DNA of 12,256 bases from a virus. A program made the translations under genes and the position numbers. Below, in pieces: positions 1 through 12,256 of the stretch. Location of the stretch: IMG/VR virus record IMGVR_UViG_3300045988_009231, positions 1-12,256 of that record. One strand, 5' to 3'. Numbering within the stretch: the stretch's first letter is position 1; each line of letters opens with the position of its first letter. The notes beneath the pieces are model-generated. The model searched no databases. It saw only the letters and a program-made list of their open reading frames with translations, and was not told the origin of the DNA.

Positions 1-14
1 GTATACAAACGACC

Positions 15-46
15 CATTTTTAACATTTCCCAACACATTTTTAACA
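15..46. repeat. Direct repeat CATTTTTAACA x2, 21 bp apart, near the terminus (mirror copy 12211..12242)
   Basis: CATTTTTAACA occurs at 15..25 and 36..46. The related TTTAACATT recurs at 111..119. Confidence 0.8.
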
Positions 47-60
47 GTTGTTAGCACAGT

Positions 61-91
61 TTGGCACGCTTTTTGCTGCGAGCCGTGCCAA
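61..91. other. Terminal-region hairpin / inverted repeat (mirror copy 12166..12196)
   Basis: TTGGCACG (61..68) pairs with CGTGCCAA (84..91) as a perfect 8-bp stem. GCT/AGC extends it with one bulged C. It is flanked by an A-run (91..96) and shows no terminator geometry in the direction of transcription. Confidence 0.6.
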
Positions 92-109
92 AAAAGCCGA
101 TGAAACGAA

Positions 110-137
110 GTTTAACATTTCGTTAACAAGGTTTAAC
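110..137. repeat. GTTTAAC x2, 21 bp apart, flanking a GTTAAC palindrome (mirror copy 12120..12147)
   Basis: GTTTAAC occurs at 110..116 and 131..137, with GTTAAC at 122..127. AACGAA/TTCGTT (104..109 / 119..124) can form a 6-bp stem. Confidence 0.7.
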
Positions 138-223
138 TGATGAGTAAATATGCAACATCGCCTGAGAAATCGCATAATTATTCGCTGCCTGTCGTCAGGT
201 GAAGCCGGGTGTTGCACATGCCT

Positions 224-286
224 GATGCCTGACGATGCCGATGTGATGCCCTGAAACTGGGTGTGACCCGATGTGTGCCCGATGTG
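224..286. repeat. Cluster of GATG-core short repeats in the GC-rich inner ITR (mirror copy 11971..12033)
   Basis: GATGCC occurs at 224, 234 and 245, and GATGTG at 240. CCCGATGTG occurs at 267..275 and 278..286, 11 bp apart. Confidence 0.7.
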
Positions 287-316
287 CGCACGCCTGACGT
301 ATCTTATGCAGCTTAT

Positions 317-370
317 GCCACCATCGCCACATAAGCCACATAAGCCACATTCGCCACCAACGCCACCTGA
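317..370. repeat. Six tandem 9-bp repeats GCCAC(C/A)NNN (mirror copy 11887..11940)
   Basis: The array reads GCCACCATC GCCACATAA GCCACATAA GCCACATTC GCCACCAAC GCCACCTGA, head to tail. A seventh GCCACC starts at 381. Confidence 0.9.
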
Positions 371-397
371 CGTAAAATAAGCCACCTACAGGGCATT

Positions 398-436
398 AAA
401 AAAGACCCCGTGGGCAATTACACCACACAGGGTCTT
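398..436 (-). terminator. Intrinsic terminator of the leftward operon, located inside the left ITR
   Basis: The minus-strand RNA is AAGACCCUGUGUGG-UGUAAUUG-CCCACGGGGUCUU followed by UUUUAAUG. That gives about 13 bp of stem with one bulge. It lies 21 nt downstream of the tail gene stop codon (457..459). Confidence 0.8.
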
Positions 437-456
437 ACAAGGGCACAGGGCTTATT

Positions 457-2685
457 CTATAAGGTGAAGCCGTTGCGCAAAATGTTTATAATAGTGTTAA
501 CATCGTCAGTCAACATGTTTGTGGTGTCTGCGAATTTAACATTCACCATCTTTGTGAAGCCTGAAACGTCTTTGACCTTAGTAAGACGTGAAGAAGCTGT
601 TTCAACGCCTGTACTTGTGATAGTCTTCTTTTGCAGAACGATGTAAGGTGTCAGACCCATCAGGTAGGTTGAATCGAACTTAGAACCGCCGATAACCTGA
701 ATCTGCTGTTTCTGTGTTCTGAAAAGAACATCGCTGCATGGTTCGACTTCTTTAGTCCATACGATTCTGTCGTCACAGGTCATAACATAGACACCACCGC
801 CACCGATCAAATTAACTCTCAGTTCAAGTGAAACTGTACTTCCTATCAGGTCAACAGGCAACGTTTCAAGACCGATGAAAGGCACAAACAGGTTCAACTC
901 TGTATCATAGTCGGCTGTGCTCTGTGTCACGTTTGGAATCTCAACAGAACCGAATGAAAGAACCTTTGAATCAGAAGCCAAGTTATAGACGGTCGTATCA
1001 ACCATAAAGTTACCACACATCAGCTTCGATGAAGACCCCTTGTCAACCTGAAAGAAGAATCTTTTTACCCTGTTGATATAGTCGCCAAGGTCGTAAGAAA
1101 TAGGGTCTTCTTTGGTGCTTCCAACATCGCCTGTATATTGCACAAATCGGGCGGTCGCAAAGTCTTCAAGATTCTTTTCGTTCAACACATAAGCATTGAT
1201 GAATCCATACTTCTTTGTCGGTGTTGACTGTGGATTTGCCACACCATCAACTATGATGTACCAATCGTCACGGTCTGCGCTTCCAACTGTTGGCGTTATT
1301 GTACCTGTTGCGGTCAACTTGTCTTCACTTATCGTCATAGGTACGATATAGGGTGTCGCAAATTGTGAATAGCCTGTAAGTTTACACTTGTCAGGTTCAT
1401 CAAAAACGTTACCGCTATCAGCATTTAACGTGATAGTAAGCGGTTCGCCAACGAAACAGTATGTCGGCTGTGCAACAGGTGTGCAGCCTGTCAGGGTGTA
1501 ATCTATACGAATAGCCTTTTTAGATTCACCTGAGATTACAACAGGGCTGTTGAAGTCCACGTCAGGCAAAGTCACAGAAGCGTTTGACGTAACATTGTCG
1601 GTGTCCTTAATATCATCGACAACAACGTTAACCGTTACAGGTACGTTCTTACTGCTTCCATCTGTTGAAACGTATGCACAGGACACATTCAGCATCACCT
1701 TTTTAGAAGACAGGTTCACAGTCACAGAATGACCGTCCACGGTGTGTGATTCCGTTGAATCAGGCACATTGTTGGTTACTGTCGGCTCTGTAGGCGCAAC
1801 AGGTTTCGGTTTCGTGTTACCGTCCAAGGAAACGATGTATTTCAGGTCTGAAATCTCAGCAGTCGCCACCGTATTTTCACCGTTCACAGTAGTTGGAACA
1901 AACGTCTGCTGTCCTGATGTGTTGACGTATGTAACCGTAGGTACACCGTCAAAGACAAGTCCATCGTTACAGGTAATCGTAACAGTTGTCGATTCTGAGA
2001 AAGGGTCTTCTTCTGTAGTGTAGGTAGCACCTGAGATATTATTCTGTGGCTCTGGAATCACTTCCTTAGTACTACCGTCCAACGTAGCATAGCCACCATA
2101 AGAAGCTGTCGCAAGTGTGAACGTGGCAACGTTACCTGAAACGGTCATATTTTCCGTTGTTCCTTCTGAGAAAGGGTCTTCAGGGTCTGCACCATAAGTT
2201 ACTGTCGGCACACCGTCAAAGGTGAATCCATCATCACAGGTCAACGTTATAACGGTATTGCTTCCACTTGTCTTTGTCTTGTATGTGGTGTGTGCAACGT
2301 TGTTGGTCACGTTTAATGTAGGCACAGGTGCGGGGCTTCCACCACTTGCTTTTACATAACAGTCGGCATCGCCCATATATCCTGATGGGAAACTGAATCT
2401 TCTGTGCAGAAACGTACCGTCACTTGTTATTCCTGACTTTTCGCCATTAATAACAAGTTGGTCTTCTTCTGGCGAAACCTTAGTAAGGTTCATATAAATA
2501 GGCACCCACCTGTCGTTATAGTACATTTCAATTTTACAGGCGGCATCGTTTTCCACGAAAGTGCAACCGTTAACGGCTTCCGCTTTTATATGACACCACG
2601 TTGCACCGTCATTATAAAATGTCTTGTCAGAACCTTTGTCAGTACATCTTTCAAAGTTATAATTGATGTTGTAAGTACTTGCCAT
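457..2685 (-). CDS. Tail / receptor-binding protein (742 aa) with tandem beta-sandwich repeats and a conserved-looking C-terminal domain
   Basis: Long ATG-initiated ORF whose start overlaps the upstream stop (TAATG at 2683..2687). Two repeats of about 88 aa carry ...T(V/I)T(L)TC(D/N)DG(F/L)xFDGVPTVTY... (aa ~128-212 and ~217-300). Further Thr/Val/Asn-rich Ig-like segments run to aa ~480. The C-terminal ~250 aa form a distinct domain (FVPFIGLETLPVDLIG...). It is the last gene of the structural module. The function is inferred. Confidence 0.7.
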   Translation of the reverse strand: MASTYNINYNFERCTDKGSDKTFYNDGATWCHIKAEAVNGCTFVENDAACKIEMYYNDRWVPIYMNLTKVSPEEDQLVINGEKSGITSDGTFLHRRFSFPSGYMGDADCYVKASGGSPAPVPTLNVTNNVAHTTYKTKTSGSNTVITLTCDDGFTFDGVPTVTYGADPEDPFSEGTTENMTVSGNVATFTLATASYGGYATLDGSTKEVIPEPQNNISGATYTTEEDPFSESTTVTITCNDGLVFDGVPTVTYVNTSGQQTFVPTTVNGENTVATAEISDLKYIVSLDGNTKPKPVAPTEPTVTNNVPDSTESHTVDGHSVTVNLSSKKVMLNVSCAYVSTDGSSKNVPVTVNVVVDDIKDTDNVTSNASVTLPDVDFNSPVVISGESKKAIRIDYTLTGCTPVAQPTYCFVGEPLTITLNADSGNVFDEPDKCKLTGYSQFATPYIVPMTISEDKLTATGTITPTVGSADRDDWYIIVDGVANPQSTPTKKYGFINAYVLNEKNLEDFATARFVQYTGDVGSTKEDPISYDLGDYINRVKRFFFQVDKGSSSKLMCGNFMVDTTVYNLASDSKVLSFGSVEIPNVTQSTADYDTELNLFVPFIGLETLPVDLIGSTVSLELRVNLIGGGGVYVMTCDDRIVWTKEVEPCSDVLFRTQKQQIQVIGGSKFDSTYLMGLTPYIVLQKKTITSTGVETASSRLTKVKDVSGFTKMVNVKFADTTNMLTDDVNTIINILRNGFTL

Positions 2686-3116
2686 TATCTATTACCTTTA
2701 ATTGTTATCATAACTATTGAACCGTCTTCACTCAGTTCATTCTCAGGAAACGGAATCTTCTGCTTCTGCGTCCTTACATCACAGACAGGCTTGTAATCGT
2801 CATCATACTTGTTAGGTGTGTCTGTGGCGTAAATCTCGCCTGTAGCTTCAAGAATCTGTTCCTTGAATGTCGTCAGGGAATCACAGGACAAAGACAGAAT
2901 CGCCTTGTCACCGTCATATCTTACGGAATCAATAAAGTAATAACGTCCTATTGATTCAACGTAGCACATCGTGAAGCCTTTGACTTCACCACGCACACAA
3001 ATCTCAGGGTTTAAGAAGCCCATCTGTGAAATCTTGCCTGAGATAGTAACAGGGTCGCCAAGAACCTTGTTTATCTTGTTGCGTTCACCATTGTATTTAT
3101 AAAACAGAATATCCAT
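2685..3116 (-). CDS. Tail protein (143 aa) resembling the N-terminal domain of the phi29 gp9 tail knob
   Basis: ATG start at 3116, 1 nt after the upstream stop. The segment CYVESIGRYYFIDSVRYDGDKAILSLSCDSLTTFKEQI follows the pattern I recall at the phi29 gp9 N-terminus (...NKWFYAFV...FEIDVLQTW...). The match is from memory and was not aligned. Confidence 0.5.
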   Translation of the reverse strand: MDILFYKYNGERNKINKVLGDPVTISGKISQMGFLNPEICVRGEVKGFTMCYVESIGRYYFIDSVRYDGDKAILSLSCDSLTTFKEQILEATGEIYATDTPNKYDDDYKPVCDVRTQKQKIPFPENELSEDGSIVMITIKGNR

Positions 3117-3117
3117 A

Positions 3118-3498
3118 CTATTGTACCGTTATAGTTACAGAACCATTTAAATTAATGATTCCCTGAATTATTGCGTCCACGTTCTGGAAAGTATATTTTG
3201 ACTTTGATACAGAACCTTTCGCAAGATTACGTCCCACCAAGATGCAGCCCTTTGTGTCCTTTGGGTAGTTACCGGGGTGAATCATTATACCTGTGCGTCC
3301 GTTGACTTCAAAAAGAAACGGCATCTTTCGCCCGAACATGTTTGAATAGATATATCCTATTCTGTACGTACCTTTGTCAATACAAGGGTGGTTCACATTC
3401 TTAGGCGGTTCAAGAGTATCACACAGGTAAGTATCACCAAAGTACAGCTTACCAATAGTGTAGTGTTCATTCTGAAAAATTCTTTTTAGTACTAACAT
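3118..3498 (-). CDS. DUF5675-like / L,D-transpeptidase (YkuD)-fold protein (126 aa), putative peptidoglycan-acting enzyme
   Basis: Shows TIGKLY...CDTLE...KGTYRI...F...P.LF.V.GRTGIMIHPGNYPKDTKGCILVG. The H-x-GN-x3-DT-x-GC-ILVG signature with a His/Cys pair matches what I recall of the DUF5675 family, which is common in Bacteroidota and their phages. Confidence 0.6.
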   Translation of the reverse strand: MLVLKRIFQNEHYTIGKLYFGDTYLCDTLEPPKNVNHPCIDKGTYRIGYIYSNMFGRKMPFLFEVNGRTGIMIHPGNYPKDTKGCILVGRNLAKGSVSKSKYTFQNVDAIIQGIINLNGSVTITVQ

Positions 3499-3514
3499 AA
3501 CAAGTCGAATTTAA

Positions 3515-3553
3515 AGTAAAAACGGTGGCACACCGTAATAATGTACCACCGTC
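3515..3553 (-). terminator. Intrinsic terminator after the putative capsid gene
   Basis: The minus-strand RNA is ACGGUGGUAC-AUUAUUACGGU-GUGCCACCGU followed by UUUUUACUUU. The stem is 10 bp with one G-U pair. It lies 6 nt after the stop of the 391-aa ORF. Confidence 0.7.
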
Positions 3554-3558
3554 CAAAA

Positions 3559-4734
3559 TTAGGCAACAAAGAACACAACAAAGTTTTCGTTGGTGTCGTT
3601 GAAGTAACCGGCATCGAACTTGTAATAGTTATTGAAGAACTCTGCCTTTGCGTTGTAGTTGGTGGTTACTCGCTTGTCAAGGTTGCAAACACCAAGGGCA
3701 TCACGGTCGAACATCACACCGAGCACACCACCGATATTAATCTCGTGGTTTCCGCTTGTCTTGATGTTGATAGCAGAAGTATGAGCAAAGCCGTAATCCT
3801 GTCCACTACCTTGCCAAGAAGCAACGGTTTCAGCGTTTGGCAACAGAACCTGTTCCTTGTTGTAGGTGTCGGCATACAAGTAAGCCTGTGCGCCCTTTGC
3901 GAAATCAGACAACAGGACTGTGTGCAAAGCGTCCTTTGGTGTGAAACGCTCCTTGCCACCAACGTTGAAGAGTTTAGAGATAGACTGCAAACGGTCTGCG
4001 TACAAGCCCATCTGATAAGATGCAAAGCGAATAAACTCGCCATCGGTCAAGCACTTGTCTGCGGTCAAAGATGTGCCCTTTGCCTGATTGTAGAGATACA
4101 ACAGGTTCACGCAACGTACAGTAGAAGCAGAACCGTAGTTGAGGGTCTTACCTGATGTAGTGAACTTTGCTGCGTCTGCAAACAGGGTTTCACCAATCAT
4201 GTTGTTGATGGTGCGCATGATGAGGGCATCGGTCTTGATAGTCATAGACTTCTCAACTGCTGAGTAAATCATAGACAAGAAGCCGTTCAACTGTGCTGCG
4301 CTGCTGAAAGATTCCTTGACCTGACGCTCTGTGATGGAAACAGGCACTTCAAAAGTAACCTTTGAGTTGAAGAACTTAGCAGACACAACAGGCTTGTGGA
4401 AAATGTCCTGTCTGTACTCTGTACCGTCTGTGAGATTCCAAGTGTCGTTTTCCTCAGCTGCTGGAATCTCTGCTGAAATCTTTTCAAGCACAGAACCGAA
4501 CTCCCAAGCATCCATCAGGACAGACGGAATCTTACCTGCATAAGGTCGGTTAACGAAAATCACCTTGCCGATGTGGTTTACAAGTGACTTCACGTAGTTA
4601 TCAACTGCACCTTGATTGAACACTTCGTTACCAAGGTCAACAACACCTGTGAGGTCTTCTTTAACGATGTCGGTCTTACCGAGTACCTCACCACTTACTG
4701 AATTAATCAGTTCATAAATCTGTTTTACTACCAT
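3559..4734 (-). CDS. Putative major capsid protein (391 aa)
   Basis: Large ORF in the structural block downstream of the portal and the 187-aa protein. It has its own downstream terminator and a size typical of small-podovirus capsid proteins. I recognised no diagnostic motif, so the call rests on position and size. Confidence 0.6.
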   Translation of the reverse strand: MVVKQIYELINSVSGEVLGKTDIVKEDLTGVVDLGNEVFNQGAVDNYVKSLVNHIGKVIFVNRPYAGKIPSVLMDAWEFGSVLEKISAEIPAAEENDTWNLTDGTEYRQDIFHKPVVSAKFFNSKVTFEVPVSITERQVKESFSSAAQLNGFLSMIYSAVEKSMTIKTDALIMRTINNMIGETLFADAAKFTTSGKTLNYGSASTVRCVNLLYLYNQAKGTSLTADKCLTDGEFIRFASYQMGLYADRLQSISKLFNVGGKERFTPKDALHTVLLSDFAKGAQAYLYADTYNKEQVLLPNAETVASWQGSGQDYGFAHTSAINIKTSGNHEINIGGVLGVMFDRDALGVCNLDKRVTTNYNAKAEFFNNYYKFDAGYFNDTNENFVVFFVA

Positions 4735-4746
4735 AATTTAAAATAA

Positions 4747-5310
4747 TTAATTATTATAAATACTTAATGTTAAATAGTCAACTAAACTTTTAATGATGTC
4801 TTCACGCACATTCATCAGTCTGGCACGATATTCGTCAAGCATAGCCTGTGTTACGTTACCGTTAAAGCCTGTACGTTCTGACGTACCTGATTCCGTTTCT
4901 GTGCGGTCTTTTGCGTTTGACTTGTCTTCTTTGGAATCTTCATTGAAGCCTGTATCGTTGAATGCTTTTTCGCTCTTAGTGATACCGTCTGTGTTCGATT
5001 CCTGTACCGTCACCGTCCTGTTGGTCGATGTGCTTTGAAGCACAGGTTTCAGGAAATCATACTTTTTGTTGAAGACCTCAAATTGACTTTTGAACGTATC
5101 AACGCACATGTCAAGAATCGCACCTGTGTAGTCCTTGCAGTTGGTTTCATTGAATGAATCAAGAACCGTCCTGTTACCGAACTTCACCAAAGCAAAGGTA
5201 TCGGGATTTGTTGCATCACCGAATATCTCAGCGTAAATTTCGGGGTATCTCTGTTTAAAGATTACCCCAAAAAGTTTATTATCACCTATGAATAATTCTT
5301 TGAATAACAT
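4747..5310 (-). CDS. Structural protein (187 aa): scaffold or head-tail adaptor / lower-collar candidate
   Basis: The ORF track starts it at a TTG (5316), but the first ATG is at 5310 (MLFKELF...). It lies between the portal and capsid genes. It has a polar low-complexity centre (TNRTVTVQESNTDGITKSEKAFNDTGFNEDSKEDKSNAKDRTETESGTSERTG) and a helical C-terminus. The function is positional inference only. Confidence 0.55.
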   Translation of the reverse strand: MLFKELFIGDNKLFGVIFKQRYPEIYAEIFGDATNPDTFALVKFGNRTVLDSFNETNCKDYTGAILDMCVDTFKSQFEVFNKKYDFLKPVLQSTSTNRTVTVQESNTDGITKSEKAFNDTGFNEDSKEDKSNAKDRTETESGTSERTGFNGNVTQAMLDEYRARLMNVREDIIKSLVDYLTLSIYNN

Positions 5311-5322
5311 AGTCAATACGAA

Positions 5323-6330
5323 TTAAGTTTCTTCTTTTTCTTCTTTTTCTTCTGTTTCAGAAGTTTCTTTGGTTTCTTCTGTTTCAGAAGTTTCTTCTGT
5401 TTCGGTCGTTTCTTTGGTTTCAGGTGTTTCTTCTGTTTCCTCAGTTTCAACCTTTTCTACGTCCTTAGACAAAGCCAAGAAGTTTTCATGTTCCAACTTC
5501 CAAGAAGAATTTAAGTCAACCCTGATGTCAGTACCGAACATGTCATTCACCTGTGCGAGTGCTTCACGTCTGCTGTTGAGCATGTTTTCAACGTATGGCA
5601 AAAGCACGTCCACATTCATGGAAACCTCACCGAGATTCAGGCGTTCACGCTTCATATTGTAGTTGGCGTTCAAGCCAAGTTCGTTTAGCATTGAAGCCCT
5701 GTAGTACTGCACCAATTCAACAAGCTGTGTGATGTACTGGCTGTTTGAAACGTTTGCGGTCTGCATCGAAACACCCTTGAAGAAACTGTTTTCACCGATG
5801 ACTGAGAAATCACCATTCAGAATCTTTTTCAGGAACTCGTCTGCACTCTGTTTGGTCTTGTCGTCAGAAGCACTTATCAGCATAGTGATTCTTGTCAGAA
5901 TTGAAGCTGTGTTCAACGAAATAAGACCATCTGTGTAAAGAACCGCATATTTGCCTATGATAGGCAACAGGCTTTGACCGTTGGTGTCGTTTTCCATAAG
6001 AACGCAATCAGAACCGATTCTGAATGTCTTGTTCAACTTCAACCAAGGATTTGCCACGATGTAATCAAGTGGTCGTCCGTATGCGTCCTGTTCACCACCT
6101 GTAGAACCGCCAAGGGCGTACAGGGCATCGCCTACCTTTGCTATGGCACAGTTACCGGATTCCTGTAACAGGCGTTCAAGTTCCACCTGTGGAATCGTTT
6201 CAGGCAGACCGTCATACTTGAACATCGACTGAGTGATAGCCAGAGTATGCTCCATAAAAGACGTTACAGCTACGTCCTTTGTCTTCACCTGTGCCTGATA
6301 TTTACTGTATATGTTATCTAACTTCTTCAT
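5323..6330 (-). CDS. Portal / connector protein, phi29 gp10-like (335 aa), with a polyacidic C-terminal tail
   Basis: MFKYDGLPETIP...LERLL, NDTNGQSLLPII and especially LNELGLNANYNMKRERLNLGEV parallel the phi29 gp10 segments LFEWENLPPTIN, NDMAFPTTPTLE and [20 protein letters not shown] as I recall them. The size is close to gp10 (309 aa). The last ~44 aa are almost entirely E/T/K. Confidence 0.85.
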   Translation of the reverse strand: MKKLDNIYSKYQAQVKTKDVAVTSFMEHTLAITQSMFKYDGLPETIPQVELERLLQESGNCAIAKVGDALYALGGSTGGEQDAYGRPLDYIVANPWLKLNKTFRIGSDCVLMENDTNGQSLLPIIGKYAVLYTDGLISLNTASILTRITMLISASDDKTKQSADEFLKKILNGDFSVIGENSFFKGVSMQTANVSNSQYITQLVELVQYYRASMLNELGLNANYNMKRERLNLGEVSMNVDVLLPYVENMLNSRREALAQVNDMFGTDIRVDLNSSWKLEHENFLALSKDVEKVETEETEETPETKETTETEETSETEETKETSETEEKEEKEET

Positions 6331-6521
6331 TTTACCAAAGTTTTAATTAATGTGCAAAGTTCCGTCAAAACTTTCGTGTTTGCTTCGACTGTTGCATTTA
6401 ACTTGTCAGTCTCTTCTTTGTGCTTGTCTTCCTGTTTAATCATAAAATAAAACAGGGCGACACAGACAGCTATCGGAAAGCCAACGTTGCTGATTAATGA
6501 TGTAACTTCGTCCATATTCAT
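6327..6521 (-). CDS. Small single-pass membrane protein (64 aa), YvrJ-like; holin or lysis-accessory candidate
   Basis: The track's 83-aa version starts at a GTG (6578) upstream of the promoter -7 box. The ATG at 6521 (MNMDEVTSLISNVGFPIAVCVALFYFMIKQED...) fits better. It has one hydrophobic helix followed by a charged helical tail. The LISNVGFPIAV motif resembles the YvrJ family as I recall it. An ATGA overlap joins it to the portal start. Confidence 0.6.
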   Translation of the reverse strand: MNMDEVTSLISNVGFPIAVCVALFYFMIKQEDKHKEETDKLNATVEANTKVLTELCTLIKTLVK

Positions 6522-6545
6522 AAATATATTATTTTTAAATTTTTG

Positions 6546-6572
6546 CAAAGATACGAATAAATATTCGTATCT
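6546..6572 (-). promoter_or_regulatory. Internal promoter -7 box (TATCTTTG) embedded in a 24-bp palindrome (candidate operator)
   Basis: The minus strand carries TATCTTTG (plus-strand CAAAGATA, 6546..6553), matching the Bacteroidota -7 consensus TAnnTTTG. AGATACGAATA-AA-TATTCGTATCT (6549..6572) has 11-bp perfect arms. There is no TTTG at the -33 position. The box lies 25 nt upstream of the ATG at 6521. Confidence 0.55.
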
Positions 6573-6586
6573 CCGCACGATTTACA

Positions 6587-7708
6587 TTATTTAACACTTA
6601 AAATGTTATTCTTTGTACTTGTCATAATATAATTACGAACAATTTCACCGATTTCGTTGCTCTGATAGAACACCTTGTCGGTCACAAAGAAGCGTGAAAC
6701 CTTTGCTTCAAGTTCGGTTGCAGAACTTATCAGCTTTCGCTTGTAGTTCGGTCGTCCGTTCATCGTAAGCGAATAAATCAGGCTGTTTTCTGTGTCCTTG
6801 ATAGGTGTCGTCTTTGCGTGAATGTAGGTGAAGCACTCATCGTCAACCTGAATGATGTTTGCCTGTAAGACCGTACCGTTGAACTCTATGAAGTAAGTAA
6901 ACAGAACGTCTTTCGGCTTGTACTTACGTGGTAAGTGAGGGTAAGCTGCCAACTCCCATTTACCGCCCGTAATCATCTGCAAAGCCTCATTCCCGAAACA
7001 GAAGTACTTGTTTGACGGCTTTTCCTTTTCCAAGGTGTCGCAATACTCAACCGCCACCGTTGCACCGTCTTCACCGAAACGATACAGGTCGATGTTTCCC
7101 TGTGGCATGTTCTGAATGTTGTCAAGTCCCATTTCACCAAAGTAAGGACAGAACTTGTTCACAGTATTGCCAAGCATGAAGACCCTGACGTTTGAACGGT
7201 TTCTGATGATAGTACTTAGAACGTTCATAAACAGCATAAACTCATCAGGCAAGTAATAACGTCTTGTGATAAACTCATCGAACACCACCGTAGTTATCAT
7301 CGGGTAGCTTGTTGACTTATCGTGTTCCTGTTCTGAAAGACAGAAGCCATAACAGAACGGCTTATCGTCAGGGAATCGTTTTCCCTTGTCACGGTCGTAG
7401 TAAGACAAGAACCATTTACCCGAAAGATAGAAAACTTCGTTGTACTTACCTTTCGTTACCTGAGAAACGAAACCGTTTGCAACATGCCCTGAAAACAGGG
7501 ATTCTGCACGTTTTCCCCTCAAGTCTTCACGCCATCTTCTGACGTATGCACTCTGTTCGCCTGTTTCAACGTAGTTGATAATCATGTAAGCCAAACAGGC
7601 ATAAGTCTTACCGTTTGAACGTTCACCGAAAATGATATTGTAATCGGCATTCTTTTCCAAGATTCCAGATAAACTGTAATACTTTGGTTTTTTACTTTTT
7701 CCAAACAT
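6587..7708 (-). CDS. DNA encapsidation (packaging) ATPase, phi29 gp16-like (373 aa)
   Basis: Walker A is GERSNGKT and Walker B is TVVFDEF. NIIFGERSNGKTYA...GEQSAYVRRW and VVFDEFITRR...IIRNRSNVRVFMLGNTV parallel the gp16 segments FVIGARGIGKSYA...GEQFIYVRRY and IVFDEFIREK...VFRNRERVRCICLSNAV as I recall them. Confidence 0.9.
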   Translation of the reverse strand: MFGKSKKPKYYSLSGILEKNADYNIIFGERSNGKTYACLAYMIINYVETGEQSAYVRRWREDLRGKRAESLFSGHVANGFVSQVTKGKYNEVFYLSGKWFLSYYDRDKGKRFPDDKPFCYGFCLSEQEHDKSTSYPMITTVVFDEFITRRYYLPDEFMLFMNVLSTIIRNRSNVRVFMLGNTVNKFCPYFGEMGLDNIQNMPQGNIDLYRFGEDGATVAVEYCDTLEKEKPSNKYFCFGNEALQMITGGKWELAAYPHLPRKYKPKDVLFTYFIEFNGTVLQANIIQVDDECFTYIHAKTTPIKDTENSLIYSLTMNGRPNYKRKLISSATELEAKVSRFFVTDKVFYQSNEIGEIVRNYIMTSTKNNILSVK

Positions 7709-7713
7709 AACTA

Positions 7714-9906
7714 TTAATCTTTAAATTTAATACCCATTAAAAAGTTCAAATACATAACAGACAACGAAAGTGAATAACCTGTTGCTTCAAGATGCACGCC
7801 TGACAGTTCGTGGAACTCACAGGCTTCACCAAGGTAATCAGTCAACACTCCCTGTTGCTCATAGTCGATGTAGGTGTGAATGTTCTTGCCTGTCGCCTGT
7901 GGCGGTATAGACAAATAGTTGGTAAACGCTTCAAAGATTCCGTCCTGTCCGTAAGTTTCAAGAAGCCACGGAACTGCACTTTTCTTGTTCACACCGCTAA
8001 CCGTAAGAGATACCGGGTAACTTTTACCGCCAACGGTCAAAGCGTCTTCTTCCTCAACCATATATCGCTTTGCGCCAAGGGTCTTGAATCGGCTATAGAC
8101 ACCCTCAAAGTCCCAAACACCCATCAGCTTGTTTACACCTTTGATGGTCTTAGGCTCAAACAGTTCAAAGGAAATTTTATGATGCTTTGCAGCCTGTCTG
8201 AGTTTATATTCCACCATATTGTTGTATTCCTTGAAGTACTGTTCGTGTGCCTGTCCGTTCTTCAACTTCACTGAATCGGTGTCCGAATAGATGTAATCGT
8301 CACCACATTCATAGATGCCTGTAAACAAGTTTCTTCTTGCATAAGCGGTTACGAAGACACCCCAAGGGTAAAACAGGAATCGGTTACGGCTGTCGTTGTA
8401 CTTGACAAGTGTTTCGTTTATCTCATCGGCTGTCAGGTGCGAAACGTCCCAATCACCGTTATACGTAAATTCGTCACGCAAAGGATTCGTCACACACATG
8501 CCATAACAGCTATTCAGCATTTCCTTACTGTTTAGATATTCCACTTCCTTACCTTTCACACCTTTCAAAGTTGTCTTGTTGGCGTACAGGTGAAGAATAG
8601 ACTTCACGAACTCTGTTGGCAAATACGCTTTCTTGTAACACCACATGTCAACCACTTTTTCTTCTTCCCAAGTGTAGAACATCTTGAAGACGTTATAGTC
8701 AACGTTTGTGATAGTCGTCACTACCCTGTCAGCAGAAAAGACCCTACCGTTGTTTTCCACCACGTTTTCCTTGTAGAAGCACTTTGAAACAGACAAGGGC
8801 GTGTCCTGTACCTGACAACTCATTATCTTTGTAAATTCGATGTCGAAGACGCAACAGTAAGCAGACAGGAAAAACTCAAATTGCTTCTTGCTTTTCACTT
8901 TAACATGCACGCCCGAACTCATCGGAAACTGTTCTGCAACCATCACATAAGGGTAACTGCTTGTGAAGTCATAACTGCTCACATTTTCGATTACATCGTC
9001 TGTGTGATTCGCATTCGCATGTGTGAAGCCACCACTAAAAGCCCTTTGAAGCGTGTTGAACTCATCAGCACCACTTATGTTCAAATCGTGAATCGTGTTT
9101 ATGTAAGACCAATTCTGCACGGTCTTCCCGAACTCGTCTTCACAGTACAGACAATGTTTACGGCAGTACTTCCTGACGAAACCTGTCTTTGTAATCGGTA
9201 AATGCGTTATGCCCTTATAACGTTCTATCATTTCCTGAATATAGCACATCACCACTTTTACGTCATTCAGGCAATAGCCCATTTCTTTTTCCGTCAGGGG
9301 TGTTTTACTGTGTCGCAACAGGGAATAGTCCAAGTCACCGACCATCTTTTCGCATTTATACTTCATAAGTTGACCGCCCAACTTAGCCAAGGAATAACCT
9401 GACAACAGGTAGCTACACCGGAACTCTATACCGGATTCCGTTATTGCGTAAATCGGTTTTCTCAGGTCTATTGAAAATACCTTGTTCCACGTGAAACGGT
9501 TTCTGATAAACTGAAACTCATAGGACAGGTTGTGAACGTAAACTATCAAACGTCTGTCTTCTGACAACTGTAGGTAATCAGAAATCGTTTCCATCATTTC
9601 GGTAAACTCTTCCCATGTACGACCGACTATACAGTAACCGTTTATGCCAAATTGCCAAACATACATACAGGAACACTTTTCCAACTTCACACCCAGTTTC
9701 ACATACTGCTCATAAGACAGGTAATTGTCGCCACACTTGTAGAAAGAAGACGTTTCTATGTCAAAGCATACAGGAATATCAAAGAACTTTTGTTTCTTGT
9801 TATTCCCACGTAAACAGGAATCGTCAACCGCCATGTCAAGAACTGCTGTTATGTCTTTTGGTGAATAGACTTCATCGTGCAAACAAAAATTCTTCTTCTT
9901 TTTCAT
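7714..9906 (-). CDS. Protein-primed family B DNA polymerase (730 aa)
   Basis: Motifs present: Exo I FDIETSS; Exo II HNLSYEFQF; Exo III YCLNDVKVV; motif A YDFTSSYPYVM; motif B KEMLNSCYGM; motif C IYSDTDSVKL; and KxY as GAKRYMV. Motif order and spacing match phi29-type polymerases. The genome has ITRs and an adjacent upstream terminal-protein candidate. Confidence 0.95.
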   Translation of the reverse strand: MKKKKNFCLHDEVYSPKDITAVLDMAVDDSCLRGNNKKQKFFDIPVCFDIETSSFYKCGDNYLSYEQYVKLGVKLEKCSCMYVWQFGINGYCIVGRTWEEFTEMMETISDYLQLSEDRRLIVYVHNLSYEFQFIRNRFTWNKVFSIDLRKPIYAITESGIEFRCSYLLSGYSLAKLGGQLMKYKCEKMVGDLDYSLLRHSKTPLTEKEMGYCLNDVKVVMCYIQEMIERYKGITHLPITKTGFVRKYCRKHCLYCEDEFGKTVQNWSYINTIHDLNISGADEFNTLQRAFSGGFTHANANHTDDVIENVSSYDFTSSYPYVMVAEQFPMSSGVHVKVKSKKQFEFFLSAYCCVFDIEFTKIMSCQVQDTPLSVSKCFYKENVVENNGRVFSADRVVTTITNVDYNVFKMFYTWEEEKVVDMWCYKKAYLPTEFVKSILHLYANKTTLKGVKGKEVEYLNSKEMLNSCYGMCVTNPLRDEFTYNGDWDVSHLTADEINETLVKYNDSRNRFLFYPWGVFVTAYARRNLFTGIYECGDDYIYSDTDSVKLKNGQAHEQYFKEYNNMVEYKLRQAAKHHKISFELFEPKTIKGVNKLMGVWDFEGVYSRFKTLGAKRYMVEEEDALTVGGKSYPVSLTVSGVNKKSAVPWLLETYGQDGIFEAFTNYLSIPPQATGKNIHTYIDYEQQGVLTDYLGEACEFHELSGVHLEATGYSLSLSVMYLNFLMGIKFKD

Positions 9907-10541
9907 TATAGACCAAATTTCTTTAAAGTGCTCATTATTCCGCTTTTAATGCTGTTGGCATAGTCCAACACATTCTGTGCGTCTTTTTCCAAGTCCTGTT
10001 CTATCGCCTGTTCCAACCTTGCAGCGTCTGTTTCTATTTGGTCTGAAACGTCTGCGGCTTCTGTTTCAAGCTCACCTGTGAAGTCCTTGTATCTCATCAG
10101 GTATTGTTCCACGAAGTTTTCATCAGACACAGACAAGAACTTGTCCTGAATCTTCTGTGCCATCAGGTCGAACTCGTCTTCTGTCAGGTCGTAGGCATCC
10201 ATCAGGTGCTTGTTATACTCTCGCACACCTGTGGCGGTCGATGTAGGCTGTCGCAAGAATCCGACTGCCTTTGCATATTCTGCTTTCAGGTCTTCCCAAC
10301 TGTGCTTCATCGAAAACTTTGTGAAGCCTTTGATGTCGCCCTTGTTCAACGCCATAACTGCTGGCGATACAAGACCCTTTGATTCGATGTTCTGAATACG
10401 TCTGTTAGCCTGTTGAAAGATTCTTCTTATCTCAGCTTTGTACTCAGGTGAAGCCATCTTTGCTTCAATGATTCTTTGCTTAATAACCGCTTTGTTGAAA
10501 GAAAACGTTCTTCCACTAAAGCCTATCGGATTCATTCCCAT
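9906..10541 (-). CDS. Terminal protein candidate (211 aa)
   Basis: It lies immediately upstream of the polymerase and is translationally coupled to it (TAATG overlap at 9904..9908), as gene 3 and gene 2 are arranged in phi29. KAEIRRIFQQANRRIQNIESKGL resembles the phi29 terminal-protein N-terminus KAEYARLVKNTKAKIARTKKKYG as I recall it. The C-terminal half is acidic and Ser-containing (FLSVSDENFVEQY). Confidence 0.55.
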   Translation of the reverse strand: MGMNPIGFSGRTFSFNKAVIKQRIIEAKMASPEYKAEIRRIFQQANRRIQNIESKGLVSPAVMALNKGDIKGFTKFSMKHSWEDLKAEYAKAVGFLRQPTSTATGVREYNKHLMDAYDLTEDEFDLMAQKIQDKFLSVSDENFVEQYLMRYKDFTGELETEAADVSDQIETDAARLEQAIEQDLEKDAQNVLDYANSIKSGIMSTLKKFGL

Positions 10542-10547
10542 AACTTC

Positions 10548-10587
10548 TTAAAATTAAAGGGCACACCTAAAAGAATAAGTGCGCCCT
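10548..10587 (-). terminator. Intrinsic terminator / attenuator between the 117-aa early gene and the replication genes
   Basis: The minus-strand RNA is AGGGCGCAC-UUAUUCUUUUAG-GUGUGCCCU followed by UUAAUUUUAAG. The stem is 9 bp with one G-U pair. It lies 17 nt after the 117-aa ORF stop. The U-tract is interrupted, so termination is probably partial. Confidence 0.65.
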
Positions 10588-10603
10588 ATGTGTGAAACTT
10601 CAA

Positions 10604-10957
10604 TTACTTGTTGATGTCAACGAAGTTGATGCCGTAGCATGTCTTTGCGTGTGACTCGTAAGTGTAGATGGTGTAACCTACCTTGCCGTCCTTGATAGCC
10701 TGTACGGCTTCACCGTTGGCAAGAATCTCACGGAATGTCTCGCCAAGATGCTTTGGCATGTTTACCAACTTCTTTGCCTGTACGTCAATCACTACAGGTG
10801 AATCACCCAGAGCCGAACCGTGAACGTACAAACCGTTGATAGGGTGAATCTCGTCAGGTGAAGAAGCCTTTGCTACGTCTGACAACTTGATGTACTCGTA
10901 ATCTTTGGTATCAATACCGAAAGAAGTCTTGTTGAATGTGTTACTGAAACTAAACAT
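10604..10957 (-). CDS. Early protein (117 aa), function unknown; candidate SSB or DNA-binding replication accessory
   Basis: Clean ATG ORF with composition like the other genes. It is followed by its own terminator and sits directly upstream of the terminal-protein and polymerase genes. I recognised no motif, so the function is purely positional inference. Confidence 0.6.
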   Translation of the reverse strand: MFSFSNTFNKTSFGIDTKDYEYIKLSDVAKASSPDEIHPINGLYVHGSALGDSPVVIDVQAKKLVNMPKHLGETFREILANGEAVQAIKDGKVGYTIYTYESHAKTCYGINFVDINK

Positions 10958-10997
10958 AATTGATAAAATTTAAATGTTAAACTTATTATAAACTGTA

Positions 10998-11156
10998 TTA
11001 CTTTTCTGATTCGATTCGGTCAATTAACCACTTTCTGAATCTGTTCACCTTGATAACGGCTTTGTCATCGCTGCACATTTCTTTGGTCTGCAACAGACCG
11101 TTTAATGCAGTCAAAGCGTTAAACAGGTTTTCCTGATAGTCGTTTCTGTCTTCCAT
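10998..11156 (-). CDS. Small early protein (52 aa), not in the supplied ORF track
   Basis: My hand translation of the minus strand is MEDRNDYQENLFNALTALNGLLQTKEMCSDDKAVIKVNRFRKWLIDRIESEK*. Its ATG overlaps the TGA of the upstream 65-aa ORF (TGATG at 11154..11158). It fills an otherwise empty 198-bp gap in a genome with almost no intergenic space. Confidence 0.6.
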   Translation of the reverse strand: MEDRNDYQENLFNALTALNGLLQTKEMCSDDKAVIKVNRFRKWLIDRIESEK

Positions 11157-11353
11157 CACTTCTGAATTTTAATGTAACCACTGTGATTTACCACCGTGGT
11201 GTCTGTTGTTACTATTACCGTGCGTCCCTGTGCGTCAACACTATGTGAAGTCTTGCAAGAACCAAAGACGCATAAAACTACAAAACTGATAATCGTCCAA
11301 AGGACAACTGCACAGGTGGATTCAACCACCTCAACTTTTTCTTTCTTACTCAT
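11156..11353 (-). CDS. Small membrane-anchored protein or lipoprotein (65 aa)
   Basis: The sequence is MSKKEKVEVVEST-CAVVLWTIISFVVLCVFGS-C-KTSH.... It has a 19-aa hydrophobic stretch ending in a lipobox-like FGS|C, followed by a short Thr/Val-rich beta-type ectodomain. Its ATG lies 8 nt inside the upstream ORF. Confidence 0.6.
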   Translation of the reverse strand: MSKKEKVEVVESTCAVVLWTIISFVVLCVFGSCKTSHSVDAQGRTVIVTTDTTVVNHSGYIKIQK

Positions 11354-11675
11354 CGCGGTACTTACTTTTGTGTTCGATAAACTTAGCCATCAGTCTGTTT
11401 TCTGACAAGAAGTCAAGAACAATCTGAAACTCTTTCTGTAACTGTTCCAACAACAGGTCGTCTTTCTTGTCCTGTATCAGAACCTCAGCAACAACATGTC
11501 TTGCATCGAAGACCGTATCGTTTACTGCATTCAGCAAATCTTTCTGCTCATCGGTCAAGTCCTTGCCGATAAAGTCCATGTCGTTGCAAGATTTGCATAA
11601 ACTCTGAAACACCGTCAAAAGTGCCTTTTCTTTGTTTTCTCTGTCCATATTGCCTAATTTTAAATTAAACTTCAT
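11346..11675 (-). CDS. First early protein (109 aa from the ATG at 11675), acidic and helical, function unknown
   Basis: The track starts this ORF at a TTG (11693) that lies inside the promoter -7 box. The first ATG downstream of the box is at 11675 (MKFNLKLGNMDRENKE...), and an alternative ATG is at 11648. Net charge is about -5. Confidence 0.6.
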   Translation of the reverse strand: MKFNLKLGNMDRENKEKALLTVFQSLCKSCNDMDFIGKDLTDEQKDLLNAVNDTVFDARHVVAEVLIQDKKDDLLLEQLQKEFQIVLDFLSENRLMAKFIEHKSKYRDE

Positions 11676-11690
11676 TTCTGAATCACGCTG

Positions 11691-11722
11691 CAAAGATACG
11701 GCGATTTTTTGAACCCACCAAA
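11691..11722 (-). promoter_or_regulatory. Early promoter, Bacteroidota type (TTTG-N20-TATCTTTG)
   Basis: The minus strand carries TTTG (11722..11719), a 20-nt spacer, then TATCTTTG (11698..11691). This matches the published Bacteroides consensus of -33 TTTG / -7 TAnnTTTG with a 19-21 nt spacer. It sits in the only unique non-coding segment upstream of the first gene, with an A-rich tract further upstream. Confidence 0.7.
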
Positions 11723-11758
11723 TTATTTTTGTTAAAATATCTTAATTGGCGATTTTTT
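11700..11758. repeat. Direct repeat GGCGATTTTTT x2 in the early control region
   Basis: GGCGATTTTTT occurs at 11700..11710, within the spacer of the early promoter, and at 11748..11758, a 48-bp offset. Confidence 0.7.
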
Positions 11759-11784
11759 CTTTTTTTCTCAGTTTTTGCGCTTTT

Positions 11785-12256
11785 CGGCTTCACCTTATAG
11801 AATAAGCCCTGTGCCCTTGTAAGACCCTGTGTGGTGTAATTGCCCACGGGGTCTTTTTTAATGCCCTGTAGGTGGCTTATTTTACGTCAGGTGGCGTTGG
11901 TGGCGAATGTGGCTTATGTGGCTTATGTGGCGATGGTGGCATAAGCTGCATAAGATACGTCAGGCGTGCGCACATCGGGCACACATCGGGTCACACCCAG
12001 TTTCAGGGCATCACATCGGCATCGTCAGGCATCAGGCATGTGCAACACCCGGCTTCACCTGACGACAGGCAGCGAATAATTATGCGATTTCTCAGGCGAT
12101 GTTGCATATTTACTCATCAGTTAAACCTTGTTAACGAAATGTTAAACTTCGTTTCATCGGCTTTTTTGGCACGGCTCGCAGCAAAAAGCGTGCCAAACTG
12201 TGCTAACAACTGTTAAAAATGTGTTGGGAAATGTTAAAAATGGGTCGTTTGTATAC
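11785..12256. repeat. Right inverted terminal repeat (472 bp, perfect)
   Basis: Mirror image of 1..472. The identical 114-aa ORF translations at 41..385(-) and 11872..12216(+) confirm identity over that span. Both window ends read GTATACAAACGACCC... when read inward. Confidence 0.97.
11821..11859 (+). terminator. ITR-borne copy of the terminator hairpin, oriented outward at the right end
   Basis: This is the exact mirror of 398..436. On the plus strand it reads AAGACCCTGTGTGG-TGTAATTG-CCCACGGGGTCTT followed by TTTT. No annotated plus-strand gene lies upstream, so any function here is uncertain. Confidence 0.45.

Follow-up and report, generated by a model that had tools for sequence, protein, structure and literature searches.

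We analysed a 12,256-bp stretch of viral DNA, positions 1 to 12,256 of IMG/VR record IMGVR_UViG_3300045988_009231 (hereafter the window, 42.6% GC). It is bounded by a perfect inverted terminal repeat (ITR) of 472 nt (100% complementary) and carries 14 genes, all on the minus strand and without internal stops, that cover 97% of the non-ITR sequence (Table 1). The ITR is non-coding except where the 742-amino-acid (aa) gene, g14, runs into it: the final codons and stop of this gene take up the last 16 nt of the repeat. TGA terminates two genes (g02 and g08) and occurs inside none, pointing to genetic code 11, and comparison with homologues led us to reset four starts (g01, ATG 11675; g03, ATG 11156; g08, ATG 6521, giving 64 aa; and g10, ATG 5310). 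We consider it likely that the window is the essentially complete (4 nt short per end) linear genome of a virulent, miniature phi29-like podophage from a large clade of uncultured human-gut phages that is the sister group of the Astrithrvirus-type phages and adapted to a host of the Bacteroidota, most likely of the Bacteroidales.

The core of the gene set is that of phi29. Profile matches to the polymerase, packaging-ATPase, connector and capsid families (Table 1; those to PF05894, PF05352 and PF25622 exceed curated cut-offs) agree with BLASTP against phi29 itself. In the latter, protein-primed PolB was 23% identical to gp2 over 448 aa (E 2e-13), with motifs A, B, and C including YSDTDS, the ATPase was 32% identical to gp16 (E 6e-23), and the N-terminus of the major capsid protein (MCP) was 23% identical to that of phi29. 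A preliminary description of the window, made from the sequence alone, had read it as 14 genes on one strand with TGA as a stop codon and a minimal phi29-type set of PolB, gp16-like ATPase, connector, capsid, and DUF5675 genes, all of which was borne out. Of the features that mark the phi29-like phages, the window has the ITR, protein-primed PolB, gp16-type ATPase, gp10-type connector, and Phi29-type MCP, and its relatives show a terminal AAA reiteration.

Table 1. Genes and other features of the window (coordinates on the 12,256-bp record; TP, terminal protein; SSB, single-stranded DNA-binding protein; TM, transmembrane; AF2, AlphaFold2; ORF, open reading frame)
Feature	Coordinates	Strand	Evidence or remark
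Left ITR (gene orientation)	11785..12256		outer ~85 nt = conserved replication-origin block; first 4 nt (AAAG) of terminus missing
Early promoter P_E, TTTG-N20-TATCTTTG, sigma-ABfr type	11691..11722	-	16 nt before first ATG
g01, early protein, 109 aa	11346..11675	-	ORF; clade A only
g02, early membrane protein/lipoprotein candidate, 65 aa	11156..11353	-	hydrophobic stretch ending LCVFGSC (lipobox-like); clade A only
g03, early protein, 52 aa	10998..11156	-	kept in clades A, B, and C
g04, predicted picovirus-type SSB, 117 aa	10604..10957	-	AF2 model and Foldseek
Terminator T1, after SSB gene	10558..10587	-	fold -20.1 kcal/mol, z -6.3
g05, TP candidate, 211 aa	9906..10541	-	position, size, and homology to Astrid ORF002; stop overlaps PolB start
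Protein-primed PolB	7714..9906	-	PF03175 E 2.8e-12; phrog_1907 2e-73
g07, gp16-type DNA-packaging ATPase	6587..7708	-	PF05894 3.6e-23
Candidate late promoter P_L, -7 box TATCTTTG (6546-6553)	6546..6571	-	box inside palindrome GATACGAATAtttATTCGTATC
g08, holin-like single-TM protein, 64 aa	6327..6521	-	phrog_4898 holin 1.8e-8; homologue of Astrid ORF005
g09, portal/upper-collar connector	5323..6330	-	PF05352 6e-13; phrog_2038
g10, shortened lower-collar candidate	4747..5310	-	synteny with Astrid ORF007 and Phanie gp7
g11, MCP	3559..4734	-	Phi29_MCP PF25622 5e-52
Second promoter-like match TTTG-N17-TAATTTTG (3554-3582), then terminator T2 (3520-3554)	3520..3582	-	T2 fold -21.6 kcal/mol, z -5.8
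g12, DUF5675 enzyme	3118..3498	-	PF18925 1.6e-30, 105.7 bits vs cut-off 26.7
g13, proximal (N-terminal-type) tail-knob protein	2685..3116	-	homologue of Astrid ORF009 and Phanie gp9
g14, distal tail-knob protein, 742 aa, N-terminal Sushi/Ig-like module array	457..2685	-	internal repeats
Terminator T3, late operon, inside ITR after g14	396..436	-	fold -23.1 kcal/mol, z -4.9, then T6
Right ITR	1..472		inner 16 nt shared with g14 3' end; T3 within
Sigma-54-like -24/-12 element TGGCACGCTTTTTGC, inward-pointing	62..76	+	twin copy 12181-12195 (-)
Heptamer TTTAACA	19-25, 40-46, 111-117	+	
Heptamer TTTAACA	12140-12238, 11730-11736, 10975-10981, 4768-4774	-	

A megablast search with the full window found no match among 50,697 phage records, and nothing close and full-length turned up in any classified family that infects Firmicutes. 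An MCP scan of IMG/VR returned at least 384 relatives, and the exact sequences of the TP candidate and of the 117-aa protein were each present on at least 1000 contigs, the former also standing in GenBank as UWG08616.1. Another assembly of this strain, a truncated one, was 100% identical to the window; genome-wide similarity was otherwise 64-95% within clade A (mostly genus level), ~37-40% to clade B, 29% to clade C, and 21-25% to clade D. Seven genes were colinear with those of the Astrithrvirus group at 30-61% identity (tblastn). Hosts of such phages are Salmonella, Pectobacterium, Acinetobacter, Vibrio, Enterobacter, and Shigella, so the premise that described phi29-like phages infect only Firmicutes or Mollicutes did not survive, the nearest classified relatives infecting Gammaproteobacteria. 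Nucleotide similarity was 0.9% to Astrid and 6% to Phanie, which places the window outside the genus Astrithrvirus (at least 70% to A. astrithr). From its core gene order and orthologues, we assign the window to an unnamed, Astrithrvirus-related group at the family level. Phi29-like phages of Gram-negative hosts have been reviewed by Evseev et al. 2024 (PMC11476376), and a palaeofaeces study found 36 IMG/VR genomes and three ancient ones to group with Astrithrvirus. The group to which the window belongs has already been catalogued and in part discussed, both Astrid-type relatives and a Bacteroidales host having been raised in the literature. Of the preliminary proposal of an undescribed lineage with a Bacteroidota host, the novelty was therefore overstated (review, palaeofaeces study, and IMG/VR relatives), while the host stood, on the expression signals described below.

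The first of these signals concerns translation. No start codon in the window is preceded by a Shine-Dalgarno (SD) site, as had been noticed at the outset: duplexes with the anti-SD that reach at least -5 kcal/mol were found for 0/14 genes, compared with 12/15 for Astrid and 9/13 for Phanie. The leaders carry A at -14 in all 14 starts and at -13 in 13, T at -16 and -15 in 10 of the 14, and almost no G, forming a TTAAA-like box at -16..-12, roughly where related phages carry their SD (SD-using relatives have 43-56% G at -13..-9). The same pattern recurs in clades B-D. Among 116 related loci, the SD was absent wherever the MCP was at least 68% identical to that of the window, while more distant genomes use it, and in a neighbour-joining tree of the MCP the SD-less genomes formed one clade nested among SD-users, an observation new here. 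An A-rich, SD-less leader is the published initiation pattern of Bacteroidetes (PMC6847099, PMC3155529, PMC7366714).

The second signal is the promoter P_E, whose TTTG-N20-TAnnTTTG form had been picked out as typical of Bacteroides and which proved to be present as claimed and conserved in relatives. In the window alone the full sigma-ABfr pattern is not significant (2 matches vs 0.67 expected; 28/200 shuffles reach 2), and its weight comes from that conservation and not from the window statistics; a sigma-70 promoter scan of the window showed no enrichment (25 vs 21 expected). P_E was found in 29/29 clade-A loci, ~63 nt past the ITR, and in an alignment of clades A, B, and D the -33 and -7 boxes (ATTTG and GTATCTTTGCA) were invariant while the 20-nt spacer had diverged. 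The 13 SD-using relatives together held one match to the full motif. That the clade retains a sigma-ABfr-type early promoter with a diverged spacer, plus the TTAAA box, is likewise new here. In clade B, sigma-ABfr promoters stand close to either end of the genome, just within the boundary of the ITR. Further downstream, P_L may be a regulated late promoter. In L010, L012, and clades B and D, the full TTTG..TAtcTTTG stands at the same intergenic position; for part of clade A, as for clades B and D, a second such promoter lies ahead of the genes for the holin-like protein and the portal. The palindrome that overlaps its -7 box upstream of g08 (6550-6571, minus strand) is operator-like and has perfect 10-bp arms. 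The match at 3554-3582 recurs at the same place in many clade-A loci.

The third line of evidence is g12, the DUF5675 gene. Residues H74 and C85 are invariant across 36 sequences, and the AF2 model has a mean predicted local distance difference test score (pLDDT) of 95. Among named phages, the nearest homologues are encoded by gut microviruses (42-45%) and crAss-like phages (35-38%), including Bacteroides phage crAss001, whose homologue is annotated as an L,D-carboxypeptidase/transpeptidase. The gene is confined to clade A and, judging from these homologues, appears to have been drawn from the crAss-phage/gut-microvirus gene pool, a relationship reported here for the first time. Because the lysin slot holds different enzymes per lineage (CHAP in Astrid, an amidase in Phanie, Peptidase_M15_3 in clade B, DUF5675 in the window), a lysin role is supported, and g12 is a probable endolysin of the C82-like L,D-peptidase type. 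Clade B (e.g., L052:10868-11290, minus strand) has an Astrid-like layout with leftward right-end genes that include the Peptidase_M15_3 lysin, whereas the clade of the window has shifted all of its genes to one strand. One relative (L013, IMGVR_UViG_3300045988_108908) is a mosaic in which the replication and packaging genes are 92-99% identical to those of the window, g10, g13, and g14 only 26-35%, and the DUF5675 gene is missing, which indicates a swap of the tail and lysis module between clades.

Translation signals, promoters, and the gene pool of the lysin are three independent lines towards Bacteroidota, and a host in this phylum is well supported by the expression signals. The same type of phage might instead infect a Proteobacterium, a Firmicute, or a Melainabacterium (Gastranaerophilales), its SD-less leaders being a peculiarity of the phage, and this is where the Gammaproteobacterial hosts of the nearest isolates, the promoter motif that is not significant in a single window, and the metagenome-assembled genomes (MAGs) holding relatives would lead. 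About 30 GTDB species-representative MAGs (L084-L115) contain contigs of the group, with labels spread over six phyla and including Prevotella, Melainabacteria, Clostridia, Staphylococcaceae, Bifidobacteriaceae, and Omnitrophota. We rejected these bin labels as a guide to the host, as they contradict one another, which is expected of high-coverage 12-kb contigs, and represent binning contamination; no plasmid or isolate record gave a host link. A non-Bacteroidota host is unlikely given that the loss of the SD is clade-wide and accompanied by the A-rich box typical of Bacteroidetes, that the sigma-ABfr boxes were kept while their spacer diverged and are nearly absent from SD-using relatives, and that the lysin comes from the crAss-phage/gut-microvirus pool.

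The tail genes bear on whether the phage is autonomous. The knob appears split in two, as described for the Astrid-type group (PMC11476376). For g13, profile comparison matched the tail knob of phage C1 (4eo2, E 3.7e-4) and residues 90-122 of phi29 gp9 (hhalign, E 4.9e-4), and similarity to Phanie gp9 was weak (23% identity, E 2e-5). For g14, the C-terminal half is conserved and alignable across clades and gave a weak colinear match to the C-terminus of phi29 gp9 (E 0.18), while the N-terminal array is variable, with homologues of 742-992 aa that differ in the number of PF00084-like modules (in a homologue list in which all are at least 83% identical); we regard g14 as a likely receptor-binding and penetration device from these features. 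By synteny, g10 is probably a short lower-collar protein, of the kind described for the Astrid-type group (PMC11476376), with a weak hhalign match to residues 70-103 of phi29 gp11 (E 0.06). Phanie depends on the tail of a helper myophage, according to the summary in PMC11476376 of a 2024 study, and a comparable satellite would encode capsid and short knob itself yet gain infectivity only by taking over the tail of an unrelated helper phage. Such a satellite would fit the split knob common to both and the lack of any recognised tail-fibre or appendage gene in the Pfam/PHROG scans. We hold this to be rather improbable for the window: g14 has no detectable similarity to Phanie gp10, its fast-evolving Sushi/Ig-like array of variable copy number is typical of a phage's own receptor-binding protein, and Astrid is regarded in the literature as a non-satellite.

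Some phi29-like elements are phage-plasmids (PMC11476376), and the window could in principle be such an element, or a linear protein-primed plasmid, and not a lytic phage. This is very unlikely, as the window encodes a full virion and a lysis module; family scans (Pfam/PHROG) of its proteins recovered no integrase, partition, repressor, or lysogeny genes; and tblastn with the MCP found no match in 72,556 plasmid records. No tRNAs were found in the window.

The ends of the genome could be placed with the help of relatives. Their full-length ends read 5'-AAAGGTAYAC, and in ten assemblies an Illumina adapter (...CTCTTCCGATCT) directly precedes AAAG, which puts the physical terminus at 5'-AAAGGTA. 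As the window starts with GTATAC, 4 nt (AAAG) are missing from each of its ends, and from this comparison the true genome would measure about 12,264 bp with an ITR of ~476 nt. The preliminary description of a complete genome ending exactly at a perfect ITR was thus right about the repeat and 4 nt short at either end, and its concern that the ITR might be an artefact was allayed, since ITRs occur in nearly all relatives and more than 70 independent assemblies share the same terminal sequence, some with adapter junctions. The first ~85 nt are near-invariant across clades A-C, although the PolBs there are only 66-70% identical. Many relatives have ITRs of exactly 119, 141, 99, or 55 nt, reflecting assembler k-mers; a fold-back chimera or k-mer overlap would find some encouragement in these truncation-like lengths and in the second assembly of the same strain (L116), which lacks most of the ITR, yet it is exceedingly improbable for a non-coding repeat whose boundary falls at a natural gene end, whose terminal sequence is the same at both ends in dozens of independent assemblies with abutting adapters, and whose counterparts are present in the isolates Astrid (84 nt) and Phanie (171 nt). 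The untrimmed adapters, at contig ends of L010, L018, L021, L035, L040, L044, L059, L061, L062, and L066, are proof of physical termini, yet also contamination in IMG/VR records. The inner ITR (218-367, mirrored at 11890-12039) holds short-repeat arrays (7-nt ATGCCTG, 11-nt GTGTGACCCGAT, and six copies of 9-nt GCCACnnnn), and differs in length between close relatives, in which the ITR measures from 376 to 523 nt.

Among the early and replication genes, g01 had no Pfam or PHROG match and g02 no family match. By its hydrophobic stretch, g02 is possibly a small lipoprotein with a superinfection-exclusion or spanin-like role. We identify g04, on the strength of its AF2 model (pLDDT 85.5), as a picovirus-type SSB, an identification new here: the best Foldseek match in BFVD was the SSB of Staphylococcus phage JBug18 (E 7e-10, TM score 0.75) and the best in the PDB was the PRD1 SSB P12 (E 0.02), with no sequence-profile match to phi29 p5 or p6 (hhalign). 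The TP candidate, g05, is 30% identical to Astrid ORF002 (E 4e-8); S59-P60-A61 and T102 are invariant among its homologues, T100 and S101 nearly so, which makes S59 and T100/S101/T102 conserved candidates for the linking residue, and its counterpart was assigned as a TP by hidden Markov model in the review (PMC11476376). Profile searches with g05, g10, and g14 against PDB sequences gave nothing meaningful. The portal protein ends in an acidic tail of ~45 aa rich in E, T, and K, which is encoded by tandem repeats of 9 nt (5325-5450, minus strand).

Several points weigh against the reading of the window as a virulent phage of Bacteroidota. Bins holding relatives are taxonomically scattered, and there is neither a direct host link nor an isolate. 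The grounds for calling g05 a candidate TP are its position and its homology to a protein of Astrid that is itself uncharacterised, with no detectable similarity to phi29 gp3 (hhalign). For g12, Foldseek against the PDB gave no significant match, YkuD/Ldt L,D-transpeptidases at TM scores of 0.40-0.47 being suggestive at most. The P_L of the window lacks the -33 TTTG, the box reading TGCG. Autonomy is not proven, as the relative Phanie is helper-dependent. An Rfam scan of the window matched no RNA family, and prohead RNA (pRNA) was not found at E<=1, nothing having been sought beyond Rfam; because no pRNA was found, the packaging motor may differ from that of phi29. To our knowledge, pRNA is known only from phi29 and close Bacillus phages.

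Under the reading that we prefer, a virulent miniature phage of Bacteroidota, the infection could proceed as follows. Host sigma-ABfr RNA polymerase would start at P_E, just inside the left ITR, and transcribe four early genes, the last encoding an abundant SSB, with read-through of T1 giving the TP, the protein-primed PolB, and the packaging ATPase. Replication would begin from both ends on the conserved ~85-nt origin, TP-dAMP being made on 3'-TTT with sliding back as in phi29, a mechanism that we infer and that the 5'-AAAG terminus fits. Late in infection, the palindrome-embedded second promoter would drive the holin-like protein, portal, lower collar, and MCP, and the downstream unit would supply the DUF5675 lysin and the two-piece tail knob. 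Translation would proceed without SD pairing, by way of the TTAAA/A-rich box at -16..-12. The gp16-type ATPase would then package TP-DNA through the portal, and lysis would be brought about by the holin-like protein together with the L,D-peptidase-type enzyme.

The ITRs hold further candidate signals. The inward-pointing element near either end matches the sigma-54 -24/-12 consensus (TGGCAC-N5-TTGC), which is expected 0.02 times per genome; its conservation at a fixed distance from the termini is new here. Where assemblies of SD-less genomes extend to the terminus, it starts at nt 66 from the true end (exact, or with one substitution in some), and it was seen in no SD-using relative examined; clade C and L044/L045 have 2-3 tandem copies. 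In clade A, it forms one arm of a palindrome, TTTGGCACG-N15-CGTGCCAAA, for which no exceptional RNA hairpin was predicted (z -1.8), and an extra sigma-54-like TGGCACGAAATTTGCA lies antisense around the ATPase/holin-like intergenic region of clade C (L073, L078, L083, L087, ~5100-5340, minus strand). The element might serve as an iteron, of the origin or for protein binding, or else be recognised by RpoN. That it is a genuine RpoN (sigma-54) site, confined to the Bacteroidota-adapted clade, we regard as doubtful but conceivable. If true, host sigma-54 holoenzyme would be recruited to both ends of a protein-primed phage genome, which could serve early transcription, DNA internalisation, or an origin-activating complex like those of phi29 p6 or adenovirus NFI. 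The heptamer TTTAACA is enriched in the window (12 vs 4.6 expected), with three copies per ITR and others upstream of P_E, g04, and the MCP gene, and a phage regulator or DNA-binding protein may bind to it.

Bacteroidota dominate the human gut, and we know of no phi29-like phage isolated on them. The lineage is among the smallest tailed phages and apparently extremely widespread, as judged from the contig counts of the TP candidate and the 117-aa protein. It is a clear example from nature of how expression signals are re-tooled as a phage lineage crosses from one bacterial phylum to another, with SD sites giving way to the TTAAA box and sigma-70-type to sigma-ABfr-type promoters. The physical termini, origin block, promoter and leader signals, and 14-gene parts list provide handles for isolation and engineering, and a 12-kb self-replicating protein-primed genome could serve as a minimal vector or model system for Bacteroides.

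Among known systems, the Astrithrvirus group (Salmonella phages astrithr, Astrid, and assan, Pectobacterium DU_PP_III, Enterobacter Entb_47, Shigella vB_SHGBLB0004, and Vibrio K58 g2) comes closest. Its genomes, like the window, are small (10.4-11.9 kb) and have ITRs; identity to the window is 55-61% for the MCP, 52-55% for the ATPase, 43-46% for PolB, and 40-42% for the portal. Both share the order TP candidate, PolB, gp16 ATPase, small TM protein, connector, ~185-aa protein, MCP, ~145-aa knob protein, and large knob protein. The group differs in its strong SD sites, lack of a TAnnTTTG promoter, CHAP or amidase lysin at the right end, 2-4 opposite-strand genes, short ITRs (84-171 nt, from Astrid to Phanie), and Gammaproteobacteria hosts. 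Phanie is similarly close in its MCP (61% identical), ATPase (55%), and PolB (45%), and its knob is also split (g13 corresponding to gp9), but it needs the tail of its helper myophage, carries SD sites and an amidase lysin, and has a gp10 that bears no detectable resemblance to g14. A further comparison is the human-faecal MAG Bacteriophage sp. isolate 2692_55609 (cluster 30 in PMC11476376; 12,148 bp, 42.5% GC), for which a Bacteroidales host was suggested. It resembles the window by description only, as a phi29-like genome of near-equal size and GC with a split tail knob; its MCP falls in a singleton cluster linked to Amedibacillus phage AD70P2 (PMC11476376), whereas that of the window is clearly nearest the Astrid group. 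Amedibacillus phages AD70P2 and AD70P3 (Guelinviridae) and the faecal contig MT836125 are gut phi29-likes of ~12.3-12.7 kb as well, but far more distant than the Astrid group (MCP 28-35%, PolB 33-35%), and AD70P2 and AD70P3 have a Firmicutes host and 27% GC. Finally, phi29 itself (Salasmaviridae) shares with the window the protein-primed PolB, gp16 ATPase, gp10 connector, MCP family, SSB type, and knob N-domain at protein identities of only 23-32%, and its terminus (5'-AAAGTA) opens with the same 5'-AAAG as those of the window's relatives. It is otherwise a larger phage of a Gram-positive host (19.3 kb), with a 6-nt ITR, pRNA, scaffold, head fibres, appendages, and a single-gene knob.

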